A DNA stretch of 64,000 bases, from IMG/VR virus record IMGVR_UViG_3300038828_000048, positions 32,001-96,000 of that record; one strand, 5' to 3'. This document shows, piece by piece, positions 1,113 through 32,713 of this stretch. The stretch's first letter is position 1. Every line of letters begins with the position of its first letter. Under the pieces are notes generated by a model that did no database searches, was not told where the DNA came from, and saw nothing but the letters and a program-made list of their open reading frames with translations. The position numbers and the translations under genes are program-made. Origin of the DNA: a virus. Its lineage: Duplodnaviria > Caudoviricetes.

Positions 1113-1156
1113 AAAAAAAAAACTGAATGATGAATAATTAAATTCACCATCCAGTT
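1113..1156 (-). terminator. Intrinsic terminator
   Basis: 15-bp stem (1121-1135 / 1142-1156) that pairs fully only with G-U wobbles on the minus strand, followed by a U10 tract. Confidence 0.75.
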
Positions 1157-1322: not shown

Positions 1323-2537
1323 TTATGTAGTTTTTATTCCTAAATTTAAATGCTTTTTAATAAAATCTATAACTATAGACGAAGAAGTGTTACTATTAAA
1401 CAATATATTAGCTCCATGTTTATCTAAATAAACAGCTCTAATTAAACCATCTTCATAAGTATCCATATTAGAAACAGTATTAATACCACACTCTAAAGAA
1501 CCACATTGAAACATTTTTTGTGGTGTAGTTTTAATAGTACCTTCAAGTTTTAAAGGGTTATGTGTATGAATAATACAATCATATCCTGGATTTTCTTTAA
1601 ATATCATCCATTGAGATCTAGCACCAACAGATGCTTTTTTATCTCCTACAACTGTAAACTTATCATCTTTAACTATAACTAAAGACATACCATTTTTAAA
1701 AACTTCATTATGGTTAGCCTTTCTTTGTGAAGAAACAAAAGTAGTTTCAGAAGTTTTATAACAAAAATGTCCAGGAGTAAATCCGTTCCCATTATTTTCC
1801 ATAAAACCCCGATTATCAACTAAAAATTGAATAACTTCTTGAAAAGATTTAGGAGCTTTTTGCATAAGAACATTTTCAGAAGTTTTTATAAAATTAGTTG
1901 GATTATAGTTTCCTTGACTTCTTGCAATAGTCATTTCTACTAATTCTTTTAAAGTTTCTTCTCTCGTTGATTGTTTATAAATAGTTTCTTCAGCTGTAAT
2001 AATAAAATTATTTCGAGTTATTGTATCATTACAAAACAATAAGTTGCATTTTACTGATTTCATCATTTTTAATCCTATAGAAAACTGTTCTTCTTCAGTT
2101 TTATTTGTAGTAGTTTTAAACCCGACTAAAAATATATCAGGTCTTTGTTTTCTAATTTTACTTATGATTTTGTCTGTAGGAGTTAATTCTAATGAAATAT
2201 TACCATTAGATGTTAATAATCTTTCTGCATGACTATTATTTTCTATGTTATCAATAGGTAAAGATGTATAATCACAAAAAGCTACATTTAAAATGATAGT
2301 TCCAACCTCTTCATTTAATAATAACTTATCAATTAATTTCTCTACGTCTTCATTCGTAATTAAATTAGAAGTATTTTCAGCCATTTTAGTTAAATATGAT
2401 TCATATATAACTTTATTTTTTTTATATATTTCAGTTATTTGTCTAGCAGTATTGCCAAAAGCAGGCGCTGCTAATGATAAATGATTTCTTATAGGTTGAA
2501 ATGTTCCTCCACCTAATATAATTGTTTTTCTAATCAT
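1323..2537 (-). CDS. Fusion of a CoaB/DFP-like (phosphopantothenoylcysteine synthetase-like) domain and a class II aldolase/adducin-like domain
   Basis: N-terminal motifs IILGGGT, LNVAFCDY, LELTPTDKII, FLVGFKTTT and FCND follow the CoaB motif order. C-terminal IIHTHNP and LDKHG fit the class II aldolase His triad. Start placed at ATG 2537 because the longer start lies inside a terminator hairpin. Confidence 0.75.
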   Translation of the reverse strand: MIRKTIILGGGTFQPIRNHLSLAAPAFGNTARQITEIYKKNKVIYESYLTKMAENTSNLITNEDVEKLIDKLLLNEEVGTIILNVAFCDYTSLPIDNIENNSHAERLLTSNGNISLELTPTDKIISKIRKQRPDIFLVGFKTTTNKTEEEQFSIGLKMMKSVKCNLLFCNDTITRNNFIITAEETIYKQSTREETLKELVEMTIARSQGNYNPTNFIKTSENVLMQKAPKSFQEVIQFLVDNRGFMENNGNGFTPGHFCYKTSETTFVSSQRKANHNEVFKNGMSLVIVKDDKFTVVGDKKASVGARSQWMIFKENPGYDCIIHTHNPLKLEGTIKTTPQKMFQCGSLECGINTVSNMDTYEDGLIRAVYLDKHGANILFNSNTSSSIVIDFIKKHLNLGIKTT

Positions 2538-2652: not shown

Positions 2653-2844
2653 TTAATTATGATATCTTAGAAACTGTCTAGTATCATTACCTAACCTTCT
2701 TGTTTCTATTATTGCAAAAACCATTATACCACCTTGAGTATAATCTTTTACTTTGATTTGTTCTCTTTTAACTACAACAGCTATTTCTGCTTGTTCTTGA
2801 GATTGTGTTTTTTGATAAGAATGTGCTCTTTCTACTTTTGACAT
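2653..2844 (-). CDS. Small hypothetical protein
   Basis: 63-aa ORF with ATG start and AT-rich leader. Confidence 0.6.
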   Translation of the reverse strand: MSKVERAHSYQKTQSQEQAEIAVVVKREQIKVKDYTQGGIMVFAIIETRRLGNDTRQFLRYHN

Positions 2845-2881
2845 TGGATGTTATATTTAATAAGTTAATAAATTAATAAGT

Positions 2882-3424
2882 TTATTCTTTATCGACAGGT
2901 TTATCATGCAAACGATATTTCCAAATATTATTGATAGAATCTTGAATTTCTTCAATCATACATTTTGATGAACCAATAAGTTTTCTATTATCAGAAAATC
3001 CTTTTACTGACCCTAAAGATCTTATATAATGAGTGGATAAAGTATATATATTTTCTTGAAATTCATTCAACGCTTCTTCAGAAGAAATATTATTACTTAC
3101 AATCAAGATTATAGATTGTGAATCGTTTTTATCAACTAATTTCTTTAATCTTAATAATTTAGGATCAAGATTAATAGGGAGATAAATCTCTTTAATATAT
3201 TTAGAAGTAAAACACCATCTTGCAAATAAAAGCATAGTTATTGCAATTATCAGTGCTAAAATTAAAGTTCTTACAACACCAAATGTTATAGATGTTTTAT
3301 CTATTTCATACGGACAAGGTTTTGGAAAAATATATCCACATTCATAATTAGTAGTAAAGATAATTGTAAATATTACAAAACCTACTAAATAAAGAAGATG
3401 TATTGGTTTAAATATATACTTCAT
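2882..3424 (-). CDS. Membrane protein (2 predicted TM helices)
   Basis: Hydrophobic stretches LLYLVGFVIFTIIF and TLILALIIAITMLLF. Confidence 0.7.
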   Translation of the reverse strand: MKYIFKPIHLLYLVGFVIFTIIFTTNYECGYIFPKPCPYEIDKTSITFGVVRTLILALIIAITMLLFARWCFTSKYIKEIYLPINLDPKLLRLKKLVDKNDSQSIILIVSNNISSEEALNEFQENIYTLSTHYIRSLGSVKGFSDNRKLIGSSKCMIEEIQDSINNIWKYRLHDKPVDKE

Positions 3425-3454
3425 AACGATTTGATTTTAATTAATAATGTTAAT

Positions 3455-3491
3455 AAAATAGTATTGTGGAGATGCGAGATCTCCACAATAC
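3455..3491 (-). terminator. Hairpin/terminator
   Basis: Perfect 13-bp inverted repeat GTATTGTGGAGAT (3461-3473) / ATCTCCACAATAC (3479-3491). Confidence 0.65.
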
Positions 3492-3525
3492 AGAAACACA
3501 ATAAAAATATAACAATGGCAAATTT

Positions 3526-4017
3526 TTAATCAGTATTATATGATTCCAACCAATTAAGCTTAGTTTTAGGATCATATACTCTTTCCACAGTATTAAATGT
3601 AGCTATTAGATAGCTAGTATCTCTACCAGCATCTATGGTCCAATTAGGACCATCATACAACATTTCACTATATTTTTCATCTTCGTTATATACTGTATTC
3701 ACAGAAATATAACCGTTTTCGATAAGGTAATTTATATCATTTTGATAACCAAGAACAGTACTATTATAAGCACTAGATTTTTCTATAAAATCATAAATTT
3801 CTTGTTTATTATCATACTTATATATTACAGTATCTACTTCAAACGAAATTTGAAGTTTATCAAGATCAATATGTGCAATATCATTACATAGATATTGATC
3901 AAATTGATTTTTACCAGATAATAATTGTGATACACCTATAGATTTAAATATAGTAGTATTTACTCCTGTACCTAAACCAAATAGATAAATTGTTAAAAAT
4001 AATAAAAACTGTTTCAT
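3526..4017 (-). CDS. Hypothetical protein with N-terminal signal/anchor
   Basis: MKQFLLFLTIYLFGLGTG resembles a signal peptide; 163 aa. Confidence 0.7.
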   Translation of the reverse strand: MKQFLLFLTIYLFGLGTGVNTTIFKSIGVSQLLSGKNQFDQYLCNDIAHIDLDKLQISFEVDTVIYKYDNKQEIYDFIEKSSAYNSTVLGYQNDINYLIENGYISVNTVYNEDEKYSEMLYDGPNWTIDAGRDTSYLIATFNTVERVYDPKTKLNWLESYNTD

Positions 4018-4370: not shown

Positions 4371-5012
4371 TTAATCAGGAAATATTATTTGAGAGATATC
4401 TACATACTCTTCCATATACGCATGTACAATCCAATGTTGACGATTAAACAAATAATCACCATCATGTAATGCTTGTAAAGCACATAAAAAATCTTTATCA
4501 AATTTTTTCATCCACTCAGGTAACATATTAAATATATGATCATTACCTACACTAGACATTGTTAGAAGATCAAGTTTTTTAGATAGATCTTTTGGTAAAT
4601 ATCTACCAATCGCACAACCTTCAGATAGTGGATTTTTTTTCATAATCATTATTACCATATCTTTATTGCAAAGAATCAAATGATAACCATCATGCAATTG
4701 TTGTAAATCTTCTAAGAAATGCTTTCCTAGTTTTTTTAACCAATCAGGTAGTTTATAAAATATAGCATCATTATAAATAGCTGTGCTATCTATCACACCC
4801 ATATCATCCAATTTTATAGCAAGATCATCAGATATTAATCTACCAATAGCACAACCATTAGTATGATTAATTTTATTTTTACCAGGATAATATGAACACA
4901 ACCCTATATCATTAAAAGATTTTCTTTCAGGTTTACCCCAATAGTATTGTATTGTATCATTCAATAGTTCGATTTGAGTATTAAACTCCTTTAATTCTTT
5001 ATTCGTTTTCAT
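4371..5012 (-). CDS. Hypothetical protein with an internally duplicated domain
   Basis: Two copies of GCAIGR...KLD...IF..LP.W.KK..K.FL..LQ.LHDG. Confidence 0.8.
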   Translation of the reverse strand: MKTNKELKEFNTQIELLNDTIQYYWGKPERKSFNDIGLCSYYPGKNKINHTNGCAIGRLISDDLAIKLDDMGVIDSTAIYNDAIFYKLPDWLKKLGKHFLEDLQQLHDGYHLILCNKDMVIMIMKKNPLSEGCAIGRYLPKDLSKKLDLLTMSSVGNDHIFNMLPEWMKKFDKDFLCALQALHDGDYLFNRQHWIVHAYMEEYVDISQIIFPD

Positions 5013-5056
5013 TGCACTTACTATTTAATATTTACTATTTACTATTTACTATTAAT

Positions 5057-5093
5057 AAAAGAGTAGTATAATATCTTTATACTATACTACTCT
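5057..5093 (-). terminator. Intrinsic terminator
   Basis: AGAGTAGTATA (5060-5070) / TATACTACTCT (5083-5093) next to an A run. Confidence 0.65.
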
Positions 5094-5218
5094 AACTATT
5101 TGAACTTTTACAGACTAAACACTTATGTTTATTCTTCTTTTTTTATTTATTGATAATTATTTATAAGATTATCTTCTCTTACCTTATTATTAACTAATAT
5201 TAGTAGATAATAAGGATT

Positions 5219-5407
5219 TTATACAGTCGGATCTTTATTTTTACCCATAAATAATATCGTTATATAACTAAACTTATATTTATTGCTAAACATTAGTATA
5301 TACTCGATAATATTATTAGTATATGTAGAAGCAAGACTATAATCATCATCATCATAATATGGATAATCTGTACCACAACAATAACAAGTAATAATTGATG
5401 TATTCAT
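5219..5407 (-). CDS. Small hypothetical protein
   Basis: 62 aa; starts immediately after the upstream stop; CYCC motif. Confidence 0.45.
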   Translation of the reverse strand: MNTSIITCYCCGTDYPYYDDDDYSLASTYTNNIIEYILMFSNKYKFSYITILFMGKNKDPTV

Positions 5408-5409
5408 TA

Positions 5410-5814
5410 TTATCTAGAATGCGTGATTGATACTAAAGATTTATATCCTAAAATATCATCTTCAGAACCTACAACAGGATCATCACCAGATAGAAAATCT
5501 GTTCTTTCAGGAAACATGCGAGCAATGATAGGATCTACTACAAAAAATATCCCAAATGTTTGTTTAGGTAATAGATTTATCAATTTATTTCTACATTCAT
5601 GAACTGGTATATCATCAATAGTAACTGTTATAAAATTAGTAACATAATCTACTTTATAACCAAGAATACTCAAACCATCTTCCAATTGATAGGTATAAGT
5701 ATCAATTACAGTTAATATACTCTCATCTTTATTAAAGATAATAATTGGTTCTCCTGTTAAAGAGAATACATGATTAGGAGTTTGTGATCCTTTTAATTCT
5801 AATTCAGTATTCAT
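5410..5814 (-). CDS. Hypothetical phage protein
   Basis: 134 aa. The C-terminus LLP...FFVVD.IIA...PERTDFL...ILGYKSL resembles a widespread small phage protein pattern of unknown function. Confidence 0.7.
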   Translation of the reverse strand: MNTELELKGSQTPNHVFSLTGEPIIIFNKDESILTVIDTYTYQLEDGLSILGYKVDYVTNFITVTIDDIPVHECRNKLINLLPKQTFGIFFVVDPIIARMFPERTDFLSGDDPVVGSEDDILGYKSLVSITHSR

Positions 5815-5853
5815 TATAATATATTTTATTATATTTAATTAATTAAAAATAGT

Positions 5854-5884
5854 AAAAAGGGTTGAGCATTAAACAGCTCAACCC
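5854..5884 (-). terminator. Intrinsic terminator
   Basis: GGGTTGAGC (5859-5867) / GCTCAACCC (5876-5884) plus an A5 run. Confidence 0.75.
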
Positions 5885-5957
5885 AATTTCCAATCCCAAT
5901 TATGTAAGGACAATCGCAAGAAAGTTCAAGCATGTTGAGACAATCATCTGTATTTTA

Positions 5958-6128
5958 TTATGATTTATAAAACTTATATAAACCATTACCTAATTCAGCA
6001 CAAGATGAATAATGCTGGTTAATCATCCATTTAAGTCTGAGTTTCCAATCTTCGGATAACTCATCGAGTTTAGTTAATAGATCTACCAAATAGATCTTTT
6101 TAAGTTTAAGTTTATTATTGGTGGACAT
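5958..6128 (-). CDS. Small hypothetical protein (56 aa)
   Basis: Below the ORF-track cutoff. Manual translation MSTNNKLKLKKIYLVDLLTKLDELSEDWK...; AT-rich leader; lies between two terminators. Confidence 0.5.
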   Translation of the reverse strand: MSTNNKLKLKKIYLVDLLTKLDELSEDWKLRLKWMINQHYSSCAELGNGLYKFYKS

Positions 6129-6194
6129 AATAAATATATTTATATTAAATTAATAAATTAGTGTAAATAAGTATCTCTATCCTTATCTAATGAT

Positions 6195-6231
6195 AAAAAA
6201 AAAGGTAACACACTATTTCTAGCATGTTACC
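6195..6231 (-). terminator. Intrinsic terminator
   Basis: GGTAACA (6204-6210) / TGTTACC (6225-6231) plus an A9 run. Confidence 0.65.
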
Positions 6232-6266
6232 AATTTCTTTAGAGCAAAAAATTCTAGGATGAGAGA

Positions 6267-6677
6267 TTAGATTGTATCATCATCATCTTGTAAAACTGGT
6301 TCTGTTGCTACCACAGGAGCACTAGAACCACTTAACCCCTTGGATACCAATCTTTTAGGAGTACCAAGCTCCTTCTCTGCACTGATTAATTCAAGCACCG
6401 AAATCTTACTAATGATTTCAGTATTCCATGCTGGAGTAGTAACTCCAGTTGTTCGATTAGTAACAGTTATTCTGTTACCATCCTTCCCCATTGCTGGGGA
6501 ATTCTTGCAAAGGTATAATGTACCTTCTACATAATTACCATTTTGGAATACAGTTCCATTGATGATGGATGAATGATATTCTCCAGCAACAACGTTACCT
6601 ACCATTGGTAAATTACCATTGGTATCTTGATCGAATGTTTCTTGGTTTCTTGGTTGTGAAAATGATGCAATGAACAT
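6267..6677 (-). CDS. Hypothetical protein, possibly ssDNA-binding
   Basis: 136 aa, beta-rich, with a flexible linker and acidic tail (LQDDDDTI). First gene after the non-coding region. The function is inference only. Confidence 0.7.
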   Translation of the reverse strand: MFIASFSQPRNQETFDQDTNGNLPMVGNVVAGEYHSSIINGTVFQNGNYVEGTLYLCKNSPAMGKDGNRITVTNRTTGVTTPAWNTEIISKISVLELISAEKELGTPKRLVSKGLSGSSAPVVATEPVLQDDDDTI

Positions 6678-6942
6678 GATTAAATGATTTAAAAGTTATG
6701 GTACATAATCCCCAATGTACCGTGATAATTGGATTCTAAACACTAACGGGGGGATTAACCGATAGCAAAAATGTACCTGGGGGGTTGGGATTAACTAGTA
6801 CGAAAACTAATTCATACAATAATTTTTCAAAAAATAATATAGTAGTACGGGGATATCAATGAATTATTAAAATTGAATTATTGAAAATCACTTTTCCCAA
6901 AAAAAAATTAGGGTATATCACCTTTATGTTATTTTTTTTATT

Positions 6943-6950
6943 TAATTTTG
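6943..6950 (+). promoter_or_regulatory. Bacteroidota-type -7 promoter box for the candidate ncRNA
   Basis: TAATTTTG matches TAnnTTTG and lies just before the first helix of the structured region. No clean -33 TTTG. Confidence 0.55.
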
Positions 6951-6952
6951 TA

Positions 6953-7355
6953 TTACCGTTTACAAGTAACGCTTTTCAGCAAGTATTCTTGGGATTGAAT
7001 AAAACGGTAAAAGTGTTCAGTTAGATTCCTACACCCTAAGTTTGAAAATCGAAAGATCTGGTTAATAAGGATTTTGTAGGATGCGCTGTTTGAAAGTTGG
7101 TTATATGGGTGATTACCGCCGTGTTAAAGATAGTTTTTAACTTAGAAGTCAATACAATACTTAGAAGTTAATGTAAATCTCGGTAGGGTTCTAGAGTAAT
7201 CATTCGGAATAAAAAGTATATACACCTGTGGATGGTCCAAAAGTAATATCTATGGTGTACGCTTACAACACTTCCCTAAGTACCAACTAACGCTTTATAA
7301 GGTTAACTCGCTGTTATCAAACAAGGAAAAATTCCTGAGTTATAACCTTTTTTTT
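6953..7355 (+). ncRNA. Candidate large structured non-coding RNA (about 400 nt)
   Basis: No ORF of 60 aa or more; higher GC than other intergenic DNA; at least 8 nested helices including long-range ones; a GAAA tetraloop; ends in a hairpin plus U tract. Confidence 0.65.
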
Positions 7356-7499
7356 ATTCAATGTAATTGATATGTTACATATAGTAAACATTTGTAATAA
7401 CGATGCTGGGGATGCTCCCTTTAAATAAAATAAAGAGTAAATTTTAAAATCTGATGCGTATGAAGTGATTTAATCGTTTTAATTTTAGTTAATTTGCGT

Positions 7500-7540
7500 A
7501 GAGTTCTGGGGTTAAAGATATCCCAGAACTCTTTTTGTTT
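7500..7540 (+). terminator. Terminator between convergent units (possibly bidirectional)
   Basis: AGAGTTCTGGG (7500-7510) / CCCAGAACTCT (7522-7532) followed by TTTTGTTT. Confidence 0.8.
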
Positions 7541-7740
7541 TATAGCTTAGTTTTAGGTTTCATAGCTTTATAAAGTCTTTTAAATTCTTCATCAATTGCT
7601 TCTCCATATATACCATGTAGGTTTACATTAACGTTGGATTTTGGAATATCAACCCATTTACCTTTTAATGCTTCTGCAAGCATAGCAAAACTGGCTACTG
7701 GATCACTACTAGCTTTTGGATTATTAACTATAGGTGAATC

Positions 7741-8619
7741 CTAATATTTACCAATCATATCTTTCATAATATCCATGCTAAAACCAGAATTAGGATGTGT
7801 AGGTGGATCTATAGTAAATTTATTATCTATATTACTTATATTATCACTATATAATTTATATTGAGAAGCTATAGCTTTAAGTTTCTTAACTTCTACTAAT
7901 GCTTTAGTATGTACCCTACTAAAATTATGATACATGTCTGTTACTAGTTTATTATAATCATTATCCTCTATCATATTCTCTATATTAATAATAGATGTTA
8001 ATCCTATTAAACATGTATCTTTATTAAATAGATATTGTACTAAAATATCTATTTGATCTAAATCAATATTAGCATACTTGTGTATTAAATCTCTAATAAC
8101 TAAATCATATTTAGTAGCTATACTATTTACTAATTTACAACTCGTATTAAAATAGCACGCTCTGAGGTTCTTTTTTAACTCTATGTTGGGAATCCCCGAA
8201 TTGATATTTGTATAATCTGTTTCCAGAAACCCTACATCTGCTGATTTATAATTCTTTAAATATGATAATAGTGCTAATATTGATGACCCTGTTCCACTAG
8301 TTATTATTGAATCTGGGGTATATTTAAGACCATTATCAGGAATATGCTCATCATTAACTAAGGAACTAAATAACTTCTTATTATAATTTCTATATCTTAT
8401 ATATCCTTCTAAAGGTAGTATTGTTTTAAAATATGGTGGTACGAACGTGGGAGTTTCTGGTGGTCCACCAACATTAGCGGAAATAGCATTTGGATAAGTA
8501 TTAAGTGTTCTTTCATCTCTTAATTTAGCACTATATTTAAATACACCATATTGACCTTTAACTCTAATAACAGATAGATATGGTTTGTATTCACTATTGT
8601 TTTTATTTAACTTACTCAT
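7741..8619 (-). CDS. Hypothetical protein, paralogue 3 of a tandem family; possible read-through to 7540
   Basis: Shares the motif D.I..L..Y....T..IG...I..IE..I....Y..LV with the next two ORFs. The frame stays open 66 codons past the TAG. Confidence 0.75.
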   Translation of the reverse strand: MSKLNKNNSEYKPYLSVIRVKGQYGVFKYSAKLRDERTLNTYPNAISANVGGPPETPTFVPPYFKTILPLEGYIRYRNYNKKLFSSLVNDEHIPDNGLKYTPDSIITSGTGSSILALLSYLKNYKSADVGFLETDYTNINSGIPNIELKKNLRACYFNTSCKLVNSIATKYDLVIRDLIHKYANIDLDQIDILVQYLFNKDTCLIGLTSIINIENMIEDNDYNKLVTDMYHNFSRVHTKALVEVKKLKAIASQYKLYSDNISNIDNKFTIDPPTHPNSGFSMDIMKDMIGKY

Positions 8620-9353
8620 ATAAGTATTGTTTTTGATTCGTAATTAATATTTATTTGTATTTTATAATGATTTAGTTTGTTACAAAACTCAACAGTATCA
8701 TCTACTAATTCTCTATAATGATTTGGATGAATTTTCATTTCTAATTGTGTAATTAACTCATATCCTATTTTACTAGTAGTGCTTTGTTGTAAATAATTTA
8801 GCATTATATTTATATTATCGATAGAATCTCCAGTAAAGAATACTATCTTATGAATTAGATACTCTCTAAAAGCAAGTATATCAGCTTGTATATAAGTATA
8901 GTATTCATGTATTTGAGCATTAATTCCACGATTTATAGTGTCATCTAATCTTACATCTGTTTTATATTCAGGAGTATCTGGTTTATATTCTATATTATAT
9001 ATACTTATTACTTTTCTATCAAATAATACACTATCTAATTTTTGTATATATTCATTACTCATTTTATTTATCTGATTCCGAGTTGGTAAACAAAACAATA
9101 ATTGTTGAAAAACTAATAATGGTATTATAGGAATATCATATTCCCAACTTAAATATTTTAATGTTTCAAATTGTTGATTATATGATATTTTAACACTATA
9201 ATGTGCAGATGAATAAGTATAAGTATATAAATTGGTTAAAATGCTATTATTATTTTTAAAACAAAATGTATCAGGTGTGCTATTTGATTGTTTTTCTAAT
9301 TCTAAAAATTTTATAAATATATTTGCAATAATTGTTTTTGATTCTGATTTCAT
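8616..9353 (-). CDS. Hypothetical protein, paralogue 2 of a tandem family
   Basis: DNINIMLNYLQQSTTSKIGYELITQLEMKIHPNHYRELV; ATGA overlap with the downstream gene. Confidence 0.75.
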   Translation of the reverse strand: MKSESKTIIANIFIKFLELEKQSNSTPDTFCFKNNNSILTNLYTYTYSSAHYSVKISYNQQFETLKYLSWEYDIPIIPLLVFQQLLFCLPTRNQINKMSNEYIQKLDSVLFDRKVISIYNIEYKPDTPEYKTDVRLDDTINRGINAQIHEYYTYIQADILAFREYLIHKIVFFTGDSIDNINIMLNYLQQSTTSKIGYELITQLEMKIHPNHYRELVDDTVEFCNKLNHYKIQININYESKTILI

Positions 9354-9357
9354 AAAT

Positions 9358-10143
9358 TTATTTTTTTGTCATTGTAAATCCAGCAATATAATGAATTTGA
9401 TTTATAGTTGTTTTAACTAATTGAGAATATAACTCTGGTTCAACTATTTTTTCTATATTTAATAATAATGTTCTCCCTAAAGCTCTTGTATCTAGATTAT
9501 TATAATACTTTAATATATTATCTATTCCATCTGAATCATATTTATCTTTAATATTATCTTTTATTTTATCTATAGTTGTATTATGTAATAATATCATAGC
9601 ATGTATCGTAGATTCAACCAAAGTATCAAGGTTATATATCATATATCTATCTGATACAATACTAGGTGTTATATTATTCTTTATTACATCTAATCTATCA
9701 CCTCTTGGAGTATTATGCAGTATATACTCTTTTAAATTACTAATATCGACACTACTTAATATATCAATTATTTTCTTTTGAACTACTATTAAAGATTCGA
9801 TATCTGTCTCATAACCATCTTTTATATCTATAAAATTTGATGTTAGAGTAAATTTTAATATACCATTGTTTAAATTAGGAGGAGCTATATTATTATATGG
9901 TAAAAAATAAGTTATAAGATGTACATTAGTTAAATCTTTATAAGTTGGCATAAGAATATCGAATGATGCAATGAACATGTATGATTTGATGTTAAACTTA
10001 AATATCTGAAAGACTACATCATCTCTAAAATCTTTAATTATACGTTTATCTTTTGTAACTTTAATATCTTCATTATCATCTTTATCAATTAGTTTGGATT
10101 TTGGATTATAAAATATCCTTAATAATTTTGAGAGTGTTCCCAT
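9358..10143 (-). CDS. Hypothetical protein, paralogue 1 of a tandem family
   Basis: DGIDNILKYYNNLDTRALGRTLLLNIEKIVEPELYSQLV. Confidence 0.75.
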   Translation of the reverse strand: MGTLSKLLRIFYNPKSKLIDKDDNEDIKVTKDKRIIKDFRDDVVFQIFKFNIKSYMFIASFDILMPTYKDLTNVHLITYFLPYNNIAPPNLNNGILKFTLTSNFIDIKDGYETDIESLIVVQKKIIDILSSVDISNLKEYILHNTPRGDRLDVIKNNITPSIVSDRYMIYNLDTLVESTIHAMILLHNTTIDKIKDNIKDKYDSDGIDNILKYYNNLDTRALGRTLLLNIEKIVEPELYSQLVKTTINQIHYIAGFTMTKK

Positions 10144-10169
10144 TTTTTTTTATATTAATGTTTATTAAA

Positions 10170-11078
10170 TTAAATATTAATAGTTATATCCATAACTATC
10201 TCATTCATTTCATGCCTAATGTAATCAAAATCATAATTTTCTATTTCCCAGCTATCTGTAACCTCATCATACATTGAGTGCATTAATCTATTACCCATAC
10301 AAGTATATCCATATTCCTCTAGAATATAGGAATATACTCCCAATTGTATTCTATAATGGTTGTAGTTACAGTCATCAAAATGATTAATTGGATATTTCAT
10401 TTTCTGAAAAGGATTATTCATATTCATTTTTTCATTTGTTTTATGATCTCCTATCCAGAATACTATATTACCATTAAATTCTTCAACCCATAGTTGATCT
10501 ATTTGTCCTAATAACATACCAGAATATACAATTAATTCTGTGTAAAATCCTGGTTTTAAATCTTTTAAATCTACAACTAATCTTTTTAAATCTTGATTTA
10601 TAAATTCATTACATTGTATAACAGGAAGTTTATTTCCCGTAAAAGGATTGATCATAAAATCTTCTTGTAATGCATTAAATTCTTCGTTTGAATGATATTT
10701 TCCACCTTTGATTAATGAATTTTTATTTTTCTCATCCCAACTCTTTAATATATAAGATTGAATCTTCTTTACTTCATTCTCATCAGCATACATTCGTAGA
10801 TGTTTAAATAATCGATAGTCTGTTCCTATATATCCTTTCTTATATGGTTTAAAATAATCCTTTGGTTCTTTTGGTTTATTTAATAAATAATCATCTATAT
10901 GCAAAGTAGGATCTACATCAGTTTTATATAACAAAAACTCATATGCTTTATATAAACTCCAAAATACATCGTCAAATTCTTGCGAATATCGTTTCGAAAC
11001 AGAACTTGCTGAGATGTATTTGAAATTTTCATCTGGAAAATTTTTATAATATTTGTGGATTGATTCGATAAAATACAT
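10170..11078 (-). CDS. PD-(D/E)XK (Cas4/RecB-like) nuclease
   Basis: G..YH...E, E, GQIDQL, IGDHKTN and HYRIQLGVY (QxxxY) motifs. Such nucleases are commonly found near the terminase region of crAss-like phages. Confidence 0.85.
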   Translation of the reverse strand: MYFIESIHKYYKNFPDENFKYISASSVSKRYSQEFDDVFWSLYKAYEFLLYKTDVDPTLHIDDYLLNKPKEPKDYFKPYKKGYIGTDYRLFKHLRMYADENEVKKIQSYILKSWDEKNKNSLIKGGKYHSNEEFNALQEDFMINPFTGNKLPVIQCNEFINQDLKRLVVDLKDLKPGFYTELIVYSGMLLGQIDQLWVEEFNGNIVFWIGDHKTNEKMNMNNPFQKMKYPINHFDDCNYNHYRIQLGVYSYILEEYGYTCMGNRLMHSMYDEVTDSWEIENYDFDYIRHEMNEIVMDITINI

Positions 11079-30373: not shown

Positions 30374-32713
30374 ATGAGAAGTTGTGGACGAGTAATTTTT
30401 GAGTATAATAATACACCTTGTAATTGTGTTACATCAGAAACAATTAGTGGATTATATATAAACGGAGGTGCAAATTTTCCATCAAATGCAGCTAATAATT
30501 CGTTACATTTTGTAAAATATGACGATAATGTTGTTGTTTATAAAAAAACAAATACTGGTTGGATAGAAGTGCAAAATTATTCAATAGGTGGTAGTGATAC
30601 CGATACTATTATAAGATTTGTTGAAATATTACCTAGTGGAGAATGGAAGTGGGAAGTATTTGATGTGGTGAATAATGTTGTTATATCGAATTTTAATACA
30701 CCACCTGTAATTGCACAAATACAATCGTTTGAAGAACAAAATGTAAATTATACTGGAACACAATTGCCGATTTCTCCAGGAATAAATATAGGAGATACAA
30801 AAAGAGTAAAGTTCTCTAATTTTGTATATGTAAATTATACATGGGATGGTACAATTTGGGTTAAAAAATATCACGAATGGAATCCTTATACTGAATCATA
30901 TTGGGATGATACTATGCTTTGTGAACCCATTGGTGCGATAAATAGTGGTGATGTATATGTAGCACAATATGGAGTAGGTTTTATAGGTATAGATCCACAA
31001 TATATACCAGAAAACGGTGTTATAATAGTAACTAATTCATGTGGTAAACTACACCTACACTGGGATGGTACTAATTTAATTTTTGATGGTTTTCAAAAAA
31101 TAGAAGAATGGTATGAAAAGAGAATATGTCTAAACACAGCAACACCACCATTTACACCAGTAGATCCTAATAACCCTACTATTACAGAAGTAGAAGCGTG
31201 GAAAAATACTAACTTATCTCTACTAGACCAACAGAATGGTACAATATTAACATATTATGATCCTACTCCTATATATACTATACAACCAACGTTAACTATT
31301 AATAACCCTAATTCAGGATTTTCAGTATATTCATATAGAATTACATCATGTATAATAAATAGTACAGAGTTGTTAACAGCTCCTATTGATGTGTGGATAG
31401 CAAATTCTTATGTATATATAGGTCAAATAGGTACTCTTATTAGAAATTATTTTACTAGCAATAATATAATAGGACAAGTAGATGATGGTGCATTTGGTGA
31501 AACAAATGATGTTTTTATATATGGAGTTCAAGGAAGTACGTTAAGTTTTTCAATGACTACCGAATATAGCTTAGATGTAACTCCTACTACATTCGTAACA
31601 ACAACTGTTTCGGGTACTACTACAGCAACATTAGCTCCACAAGTATATGATTGTAATACCCCTTTATACACATTTATTTTAAATAAAAATAATACTATAT
31701 CTAAAATATCACAACCAGAATCTTTGTTTTTTAAAGAACAAACTATTATTGATGCTGGTGTAGATAAATATGGAAGAATATATCGATATGGTTATATAGG
31801 TATAGGTATGAATAGACCTAAAGCACCTTTGCATATATTGGGTTTAGGTGATTCATCAGAACCTTATTTATCAGATGCAGCAATATATATAGGCGGAAAT
31901 GGGAAAAAAATTTATTGGGGGGATAACTTTAAAACTCCTGAAAGTGGAATTAATGTACATAATTTGTCTTTAGGAGAATGGAACGGAGATAGTGACGCTT
32001 TTGCTTTCCACGCTAAAACTGGGCATAGATTTTATCTAAAAGCTTCAGCGTGGGATGATAATAATTCAACTCAATATCCTGCTTTCTTTATTAGGAATGC
32101 TGTGTCAGGTGCAAGTAATGTGGGTAAAATTGGTCTTAATACTAACAATCCTAGAGTTTCAGTAGATTTTGGGAAGCTTACCAACCCTGATGGAGTAATT
32201 GCTAACAAGGATGGTATGATAATTCCAGGAGGTACTATTGCAGAAAGACCATCAACTCCTGTAGAATCTACGATTAGATATAATTCAGATTCCAAATGTA
32301 TAGAATATTATGATGGAGTTAGTTGGAAATCAGATTGTAAACCATACAAGATATATACCGCATTATTATCTCAAACTGGAACTAATGCCCCTGTTGCAAC
32401 AGTTCTGGAGAATGATTTATATAATCCTGTTACAATTACAAGATTATTCGCAGGTTCATATACCATAGACTGTATAGATTTTATAGTAGGCAAAGTTCAT
32501 ATATCTGGGGCAACAGATTGGAATGGCTCTGGAAGTACAGTAATCCCATTGTGGGATGAATCTCAAATAATAGGTTATTTAGAAATATATTGTAATCAGA
32601 GTTCTGGTAAAATTGGATTTGAAGTATTTAATGCGGCATTCACAAGAATTGATTGGAGTGTGTTAATGGGGGCATCTAATTTAAACTTCCCTGAAATTAA
32701 AGTATATCCGTAA
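30374..32713 (+). CDS. Tail fibre / receptor-binding protein
   Basis: GYIGIG..RPKAPLHI, GKIGLNTNNP, PGGTIAERP...IRYNSD...EYYDG.SW and YKIYTALLSQTGTNAP are fibre-type motifs. Confidence 0.8.
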   Translation: MRSCGRVIFEYNNTPCNCVTSETISGLYINGGANFPSNAANNSLHFVKYDDNVVVYKKTNTGWIEVQNYSIGGSDTDTIIRFVEILPSGEWKWEVFDVVNNVVISNFNTPPVIAQIQSFEEQNVNYTGTQLPISPGINIGDTKRVKFSNFVYVNYTWDGTIWVKKYHEWNPYTESYWDDTMLCEPIGAINSGDVYVAQYGVGFIGIDPQYIPENGVIIVTNSCGKLHLHWDGTNLIFDGFQKIEEWYEKRICLNTATPPFTPVDPNNPTITEVEAWKNTNLSLLDQQNGTILTYYDPTPIYTIQPTLTINNPNSGFSVYSYRITSCIINSTELLTAPIDVWIANSYVYIGQIGTLIRNYFTSNNIIGQVDDGAFGETNDVFIYGVQGSTLSFSMTTEYSLDVTPTTFVTTTVSGTTTATLAPQVYDCNTPLYTFILNKNNTISKISQPESLFFKEQTIIDAGVDKYGRIYRYGYIGIGMNRPKAPLHILGLGDSSEPYLSDAAIYIGGNGKKIYWGDNFKTPESGINVHNLSLGEWNGDSDAFAFHAKTGHRFYLKASAWDDNNSTQYPAFFIRNAVSGASNVGKIGLNTNNPRVSVDFGKLTNPDGVIANKDGMIIPGGTIAERPSTPVESTIRYNSDSKCIEYYDGVSWKSDCKPYKIYTALLSQTGTNAPVATVLENDLYNPVTITRLFAGSYTIDCIDFIVGKVHISGATDWNGSGSTVIPLWDESQIIGYLEIYCNQSSGKIGFEVFNAAFTRIDWSVLMGASNLNFPEIKVYP

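Follow-up and report, generated by a model that had tools for sequence, protein, structure and literature searches.

The window analysed here is a 64,000-nucleotide (nt) stretch of viral DNA that covers positions 32,001 to 96,000 of the IMG/VR record IMGVR_UViG_3300038828_000048, a virus contig of 122 kilobases (kb) with an estimated completeness of 72%. The G+C content of the window is 25-31%, its large terminase and the one encoded by the crAss-like Cellulophaga phage phi14:2 are 30% identical, and the source phage is itself crAss-like. Near the beginning of the window lies the gene P0001 (1323..2537, stop codon 1323-1325), which runs on the minus strand, as do all of its features described below, and which is an open reading frame (ORF) of 404 amino acids (aa) plus a stop. 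Its product is a fusion of a CoaB-like N-terminal domain with a class II aldolase-like C-terminal domain. We placed the start at 2537 because all 31 aligned homologues begin about five residues before the GGGT motif; an upstream ATG at 2603, giving a longer frame of 426 aa, was rejected, as the N-termini of the homologues stop short of it. The length of 404 aa also agrees with a publicly available gene prediction for this contig.

We built an AlphaFold2 model from 32 homologues, with a mean pLDDT (predicted local distance difference test score) of 89. Residues 1-212 (1902..2537) adopt the fold of CoaB, also named PPCS (EC 6.3.2.5, PF04127). An exhaustive VIA-align search returned CoaB structures over residues 1-211 at Z values from 21.6 down to 16, the closest being the Streptococcus pneumoniae enzyme 2gk4 (Z 21.6, root-mean-square deviation (rmsd) 2.2 Å over 189 residues), followed by 4qji (19.7), 5int (18.5), 6th2 and E. 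coli 1u7z. Foldseek with the N-terminal half matched CoaB structures only, with a best E-value of 3e-12 and a probability of 1.00. In addition, the Pfam family DFP (PF04127) scores 29 bits against a gathering cut-off of 22 (E 1e-6, residues 78-198 of the 426-aa frame), and phrog_35624 matches residues 25-228 of the same longer frame with an E-value of 5e-43.

The active-site residues were matched by aligning the protein with 2gk4, 5int and E. coli Dfp. The Gly-rich loop GGGTF (9-13) and the segment FQPIRNHLSLAAPAFG (13-28) occupy 2454..2513, where GGGT 9-12 aligns with AGPT 195-198 of E. coli CoaB. The VAFCDY motif (85-90) and the HAERL region follow at 2217..2285, with Asp89 at the position of E. 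coli Asp279. The remaining CoaB-type core motifs lie within 2022..2183 and include TPTDKI (119-124, with Lys123), RPDIFLVGFKTTT (132-144, with Arg132, Asp134 and Lys141) and CNDT (with Asn170-Asp171); among these, GFKTTT 139-144 aligns with GFAAET of the E. coli enzyme and Asn170-Asp171 with Asn353-Asp354. The phage protein thus shares with CoaB the fold over residues 1-210 and the motif order of a GxT loop, A-x-x-D-Y, P-x-x-K-I, GF(K/A)xxT and ND, as a preliminary description of this gene had pointed out, including VGFK within RPDIFLVGFKTTT. The three core motifs TPTDKI, RPDIFLVGFKTTT and CNDT are invariant in fused proteins and in relatives that consist of the N-domain only, and the invariant core common to both forms comprises G10, T12, H19, G28, T30, D89, R106, K123, R132, D134, K141, N170 and D171; H19, G28 and T30 are kept even among the N-domain-only relatives. 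Lys289 of E. coli CoaB is required for acyl-cytidylate formation. In the fusion protein, this position may be taken by an invariant basic residue, Arg106: the HMMER alignment sets it opposite the Lys of NKMKK in 5int (equivalent to E. coli Lys289), whereas hhalign with the E. coli enzyme places this region 2-3 residues out of register.

The largest difference from CoaB concerns the loop opposite D203, R206, N210 and SSGK, which appears rebuilt in the phage protein. The GxT motif and the conserved Gly that follows it are spaced 15 residues apart in the fusion protein, E. coli CoaB and 2gk4 alike, and this equal spacing gives an ungapped alignment in which E200 is replaced by Q14, D203 by R17, R206 by L20, N210 by A24 and S212/S213 by A26/F27. 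The preliminary description had taken the phosphopantothenate loop of CoaB to be replaced by FQPIRNHLSLAAPAFG. That replacement stands on the ungapped 15-residue alignment, but its completeness has to be qualified, as a gapped hhalign alternative (probability 21%) sets N18-H19 opposite N210-H211; the extent of the predicted rebuilding therefore depends on the choice of alignment.

Residues 224-404 (1326..1868) form the second domain, which we assign to the class II aldolase fold. Over residues 224-401, the same VIA-align search gave Z values of 13.8-10.7 to class II aldolases, epimerases and decarboxylases, with the Thermotoga maritima structure 1pvt as the closest (Z 13.8, 158 residues aligned, rmsd 3.0 Å), followed by 2opi FucA (13.2), 4c25 (13.1) and 1jdi AraD (11.3). 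These values lie within about 2.5 of one another, so that the fold search does not separate the subfamilies of the class II aldolase/adducin superfamily (PF00596), which comprises FucA, RhaD, the AraD epimerase, the MtnB dehydratase, the OtnC/YgbL decarboxylase and pyruvic oxime dioxygenase. The Pfam model Aldolase_II (PF00596) scores 17.5 bits, under its gathering score of 22.2, and the assignment is accordingly based on the fold match together with the His triad. Some homologues carry a precomputed PF00596 match, and hhalign to AraD gives a probability of 61%. A fold search of BFVD returned nothing informative except a class II aldolase of Bodo saltans virus.

The metal site of this domain (1413..1568) includes HTH (His324 and His326), QCGSLECG with the invariant Cys345 and Cys350, and KHG with His374. 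The HTH motif at 324-326 aligns with His95 and His97 of AraD, and the three His residues, located at positions equivalent to those of the HxH...H triad of the aldolases, do not vary across the 32 close and 7 distant fused sequences compared, down to 29% identity. A predicted anion or substrate pocket is formed by NGFTPGHF (251-258), SSQRK (269-273) and SVGARSQ (303-309), encoded at 1611..1787. In contrast to the known enzymes, the acidic side chain that acts as the base or as a fourth ligand, Glu73 in FucA and Asp76 in AraD, is replaced by Gly305 (alignments to AraD) or Gln309 (alignment to FucA), both of which are invariant and neither acidic. The domain also differs from the aldolases in being short (~180 aa) and in having extra invariant Arg and Lys residues, the two Cys of QCGSxxCG and the element NNxNGFTPGHF, which is invariant together with SSQRK and SVGARSQ. 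Judging from the known phosphate site of FucA, the pocket of the phage protein is probably richer in Arg and Lys. The C-domain has many invariant polar residues and is under strong purifying selection, with a conservation equal to that of the N-domain. Both the fusion and the HxH...H triad had been proposed in the preliminary description, and both are borne out well past what chance would give: each half finds its own structural match, the N-domain by Foldseek and VIA-align and the C-domain by VIA-align, and DFP exceeds its gathering score.

The protein could be an ordinary phosphopantothenate-cysteine ligase that raises the CoA synthesis of the host, with a dispensable C-domain. The fold is that of CoaB, the nearest match among solved structures is a monofunctional enzyme, that of S. 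pneumoniae, and the DFP score exceeds its threshold, all of which would be expected of such a ligase. However, identity to CoaBs is merely 12-23%, and the NCBIfam equivalog models for CoaB all fail their cut-offs (NF005231, 46.5 against 265 bits; TIGR02114, 43.5 against 217.2; TIGR00521, 22.1 against 219.7), the first two scores being 5-6-fold too low. D203, R206, N210 and the SSG are all replaced on the ungapped alignment, and the C-domain is conserved as strongly as the N-domain. Furthermore, we surveyed 20 whole records of phages that carry the gene (110-482 kb, eight of them at least 90% complete), and the CoaC flavoprotein (PF02441) was found in none of these 20 records, although it was present in 14 of 14 cellular control genomes, in agreement with the earlier expectation that the gene has no CoaC partner. 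The phage protein has neither a CoaC domain nor a CoaC encoded alongside it; its N-domain is joined instead to the aldolase-fold domain, and its family is essentially restricted to viruses. Related cultured crAss-like phages infect Bacteroidota, and such hosts should have a CoaBC of their own. Because CoaC is missing from all the carrier records and the equivalog scores are so far under their cut-offs, it is very unlikely that the fusion protein makes CoA, and we give almost no credence to the ordinary-ligase explanation.

The family extends far beyond the source phage. A word-indexed search found at least 381 relatives of ~400 aa with 52-69% identity, and an exhaustive search yielded 615 representative clusters at 50% identity, among which are over 100 full-length fusions, some with as little as ~30% identity, as well as many proteins of 200-260 aa that consist of the N-domain only. 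Across 32 sequences of 53-70% identity, about 90 columns are invariant. As fused and N-only forms have the same invariant core, the sequences indicate that the N-domain is an autonomous unit to which the aldolase-like domain was added in one large branch. The corresponding clusters in an atlas of protein clusters derived from a language model are 77-100% viral. Among 185,579 species genomes, about 12 full-length copies were found, all on contigs of metagenome-assembled genomes from unrelated phyla; the remaining matches in these genomes are genuine archaeal CoaBs with 24-42% identity over part of the N-domain. Carrier contigs of 265-723 kb encode terminase, DnaB, ribonucleotide reductase (RNR), SmpB and similar genes, which identifies them as huge phages. 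In cultured phages (Pseudomonas Otagovirus and Caulobacter Bertelyvirus), N-only forms alone occur, all annotated as hypothetical proteins. A split gene was considered in Caulobacter phage CcrBL9 and rejected, since the gene that follows the N-only homologue there, 176 aa long, has no relationship to the C-domain. A close stand-alone family of the C-domain was also rejected, with just 8 short matches that are mostly fragments at contig ends. Other extensions of the N-domain were observed as well: P0245 (456 aa) joins a CoaB-like N-domain to an M23 peptidase domain and has no aldolase-like domain, and P0208 (585 aa) and P0234 (351 aa) carry it with different extensions. We found no description of a CoaB-aldolase fusion in the literature searched, the jumbo-phage and NAD+-ADPr (ADP-ribose) surveys of Iyer et al. 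included. The family is thus large, strongly conserved and virus-centred, its reaction is undescribed, and it represents a new combination of two known enzyme folds.

In the window, a terminator-like hairpin of 15 pairs followed by T9 (1121-1156, minus strand) lies ~170 nt past the stop codon of the fusion gene, within the 246-nt gap that separates this gene from the next ORF (597-1076). From its sequence, the hairpin is likely an intrinsic terminator, and the fusion gene probably ends its transcription unit. Upstream, at 2653-4017 on the minus strand, there are ORFs of 63, 180 and 163 aa that match no family; the 180-aa and 163-aa products have N-terminal hydrophobic, membrane-like segments. 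A further likely terminator is located at 3461-3491 on the minus strand. The small ORFs that flank the fusion gene in the window have no Pfam match.

The homologue and neighbourhood survey suggested in the preliminary description covered 73 related viral loci and showed no fixed partner and a linkage to ADP-ribosylglycohydrolase (ARH) genes. A conserved operon partner was rejected: the best-shared neighbour cluster occurs in 11 of the 73 loci, and as no neighbour family is common to more, the fusion gene has no obligate partner. No methyltransferase was found among the annotated neighbour clusters of these loci or by Pfam among the neighbours in the window. The recurrent neighbours include NAMPT-like, Prs-like, PARP-like and ARH genes, and one of these four lies within 6 kb of the fusion gene in 21 loci. 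In the carrier records, ARH is present in 8 of 20 and its nearest copy is within 7 kb in six of these (5 of 7 independent records; P ~6e-5 under uniform placement, with a 7-kb threshold that was set after the data had been seen and a null that ignores the modularity of phage genomes). PARP-like genes are likewise present in 8 of the 20 records, within 7 kb in three.

One such arrangement occurs in a complete phage of 395 kb with terminal repeats (L065, IMGVR_UViG_3300032132_000001), the one carrier record whose NAMPT gene is close, where the fusion gene, an NMNAT-Nudix gene and an NAMPT gene follow one another at 6001-10250 of the locus, forming a compact NAD+ salvage cluster headed by the fusion gene. 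The products of this cluster are a 316-aa NMNAT plus Nudix protein (NatV-like) and a 494-aa NAMPT-like protein, and a small conserved gene comes after the NAMPT gene. In two other loci, an ARH gene is located directly upstream on the same strand (L060, 4967-5992; L034, 4812-5864), with gaps of ~8 and ~136 nt, respectively, to the start of the match, and the ARH and the fusion gene are probably co-transcribed there. Relatives of the fusion gene thus adjoin phage NAD+ salvage modules (the NadV-NatV type with NAMPT, NMNAT-Nudix and Prs) and ARHs in several independent huge-phage lineages, but the fusion protein itself has no kinship in sequence or fold to any enzyme of these pathways, and no known step of them requires such an enzyme.

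Several other neighbours were observed. In the locus L047, from a 198-kb phage, a 304-aa homologue of Acb3, an inhibitor of the cyclic-oligonucleotide-based anti-phage signalling system (CBASS), is encoded two genes upstream of the fusion gene (4531-5442; PF25187, E 9e-29). A gene of the glutathionylspermidine synthase family (PF03738, E 7e-145) lies directly upstream in four related contigs (L057, L058, L061 and L062, ~4800-5980). A family of 198-222 aa with an HE(M/I/V)AHG motif of the HExxH type, which has no Pfam match, ranks among the most frequent neighbours, with 10 loci from three lineages (for example L022 7760-8356, L033 4639-5307 and L077 5328-5984). In one phage lineage (L051, 7242-9244, and L059 and L076, minus strand), genes for a DXD glycosyltransferase (PF04488), as many as three paralogues in tandem, run convergently towards the fusion gene.

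The neighbourhoods also bear on another explanation, that the protein acts on nucleic acids rather than on a free metabolite, in DNA base hypermodification or in the repair or modification of tRNA or other RNA. In the source phage, the gene belongs to a minus-strand block with an exonuclease and is near replication genes, and other phages encode RNA ligase (11 loci), DNA ligase, Thg1, histidine phosphatase or metallophosphatase nearby. However, the majority of the 11 loci with RNA ligase represent a single lineage in nearly identical copies, none of these partners is kept across lineages, and the Pfam scan detected no nucleic-acid-binding domain in the protein. To our knowledge, neither the PF04127 nor the PF00596 fold acts on polynucleotides. 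We regard a role in nucleic-acid modification or repair as unlikely.

Taken together, the fusion protein is almost certainly an active enzyme, a putative combination of a CoaB-type NTP (nucleoside triphosphate)-dependent carboxylate-activating domain and a three-His metal domain, whose catalysis we infer from the conserved residues. In the proposed mechanism, the N-domain would bind an NTP and activate a carboxylate as an acyl-NMP (acyl-nucleoside monophosphate), as in CoaB, yielding an amide or an ester, and the rebuilt acceptor/substrate loop would accommodate a substrate other than 4'-phosphopantothenate and cysteine. The C-domain would hold a divalent metal on its three His residues and perform chemistry of the enolisation type (epimerisation, dehydration, decarboxylation or retro-aldol cleavage) on a phosphorylated keto or hydroxy compound, in this case without the usual Glu/Asp base. 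The additional Arg and Lys residues of the pocket may mean that the substrate is more anionic, for instance a diphosphate or a phospho-acid. The two domains may act in successive steps on a single substrate, and the gene may be expressed early, as the preliminary description had supposed. Because no phage-encoded partner is needed, the substrate would be a common host metabolite, possibly a phosphorylated compound from the NAD+/ADP-ribose pool.

An alternative that makes use of the same altered sites is a protein without catalytic activity, a binder or sponge that takes up a cofactor or an immune signal of the nucleotide type, with the old active sites serving as pockets. The canonical catalytic residues are indeed changed in both domains, the N-domain occurs alone among small early genes in many phages, and the Acb3 anti-CBASS homologue and other counter-defence genes are near in some phages. 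Against a sponge, neither the full metal triad nor the full set of nucleotide-site residues varies down to 29% identity, a pattern typical of catalytic sites, a two-domain protein of 404 aa would be large for this purpose, and PADLOC gave no match, its library holding no anti-defence models. We consider a sponge improbable, and the ligase, nucleic-acid and sponge explanations are each less likely than an enzyme acting on a metabolite.

On balance, we lean towards a self-contained two-domain enzyme that operates in host takeover or counter-defence and is tied to the NAD+/ADP-ribose/pentose-phosphate pool. This is the most plausible physiological setting, as judged solely from gene linkage in other phages. 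Several observations weigh against this interpretation. The Lys289 position is probably an Arg and the N210/SSG loop is altered, so the N-domain could perform a chemistry other than acyl-NMP formation; the usual Glu/Asp is absent from the aldolase-like site, which could have altered catalysis or none. The NAD+/ADP-ribose link is one of guilt by association, to which the limits of the ARH statistic given above apply. Of the 20 carrier records, 13 have an NAMPT/NAPRT gene, which is close to the fusion gene in one only, and other neighbours (RNA and DNA ligases, Thg1, phosphatases, glutathionylspermidine synthase and Acb3) hint at different functions. In addition, the 122-kb source record, at its 72% completeness, contains no NAMPT/NAPRT, ARH, PARP, Prs or NUDIX genes.

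A more specific proposal, which we put forward as a long shot, is that the family represents a new phage NAD+/ADP-ribose enzyme, a ligase paired with a metal enzyme, which would convert what the NAD+-consuming immunity of the host or the removal of ADP-ribosyl groups leaves behind, so that phage or host could reuse it or would no longer sense it. Its substrate may then be ADP-ribose in free form, a pentose (di)phosphate that stems from it, or a deamidated pyridine nucleotide, with activation and amidation of its carboxylate. If true, this would be a new counter-defence reaction, present even in crAss-like phages without other salvage genes.

Databases label the family by domain only, and automatic labels such as 'CoA biosynthesis' or 'aldolase' would mislead the annotation of the fusion gene. 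Hundreds of diverse phages, crAss-like phages, jumbo phages and megaphages from gut, marine and freshwater environments, keep this enzyme under strong purifying selection. The identity of its substrate would reveal a reaction that phages need from cell takeover onward, and might extend by one step the arms race over NAD+/ADP-ribose in which phages and bacterial immunity are engaged.

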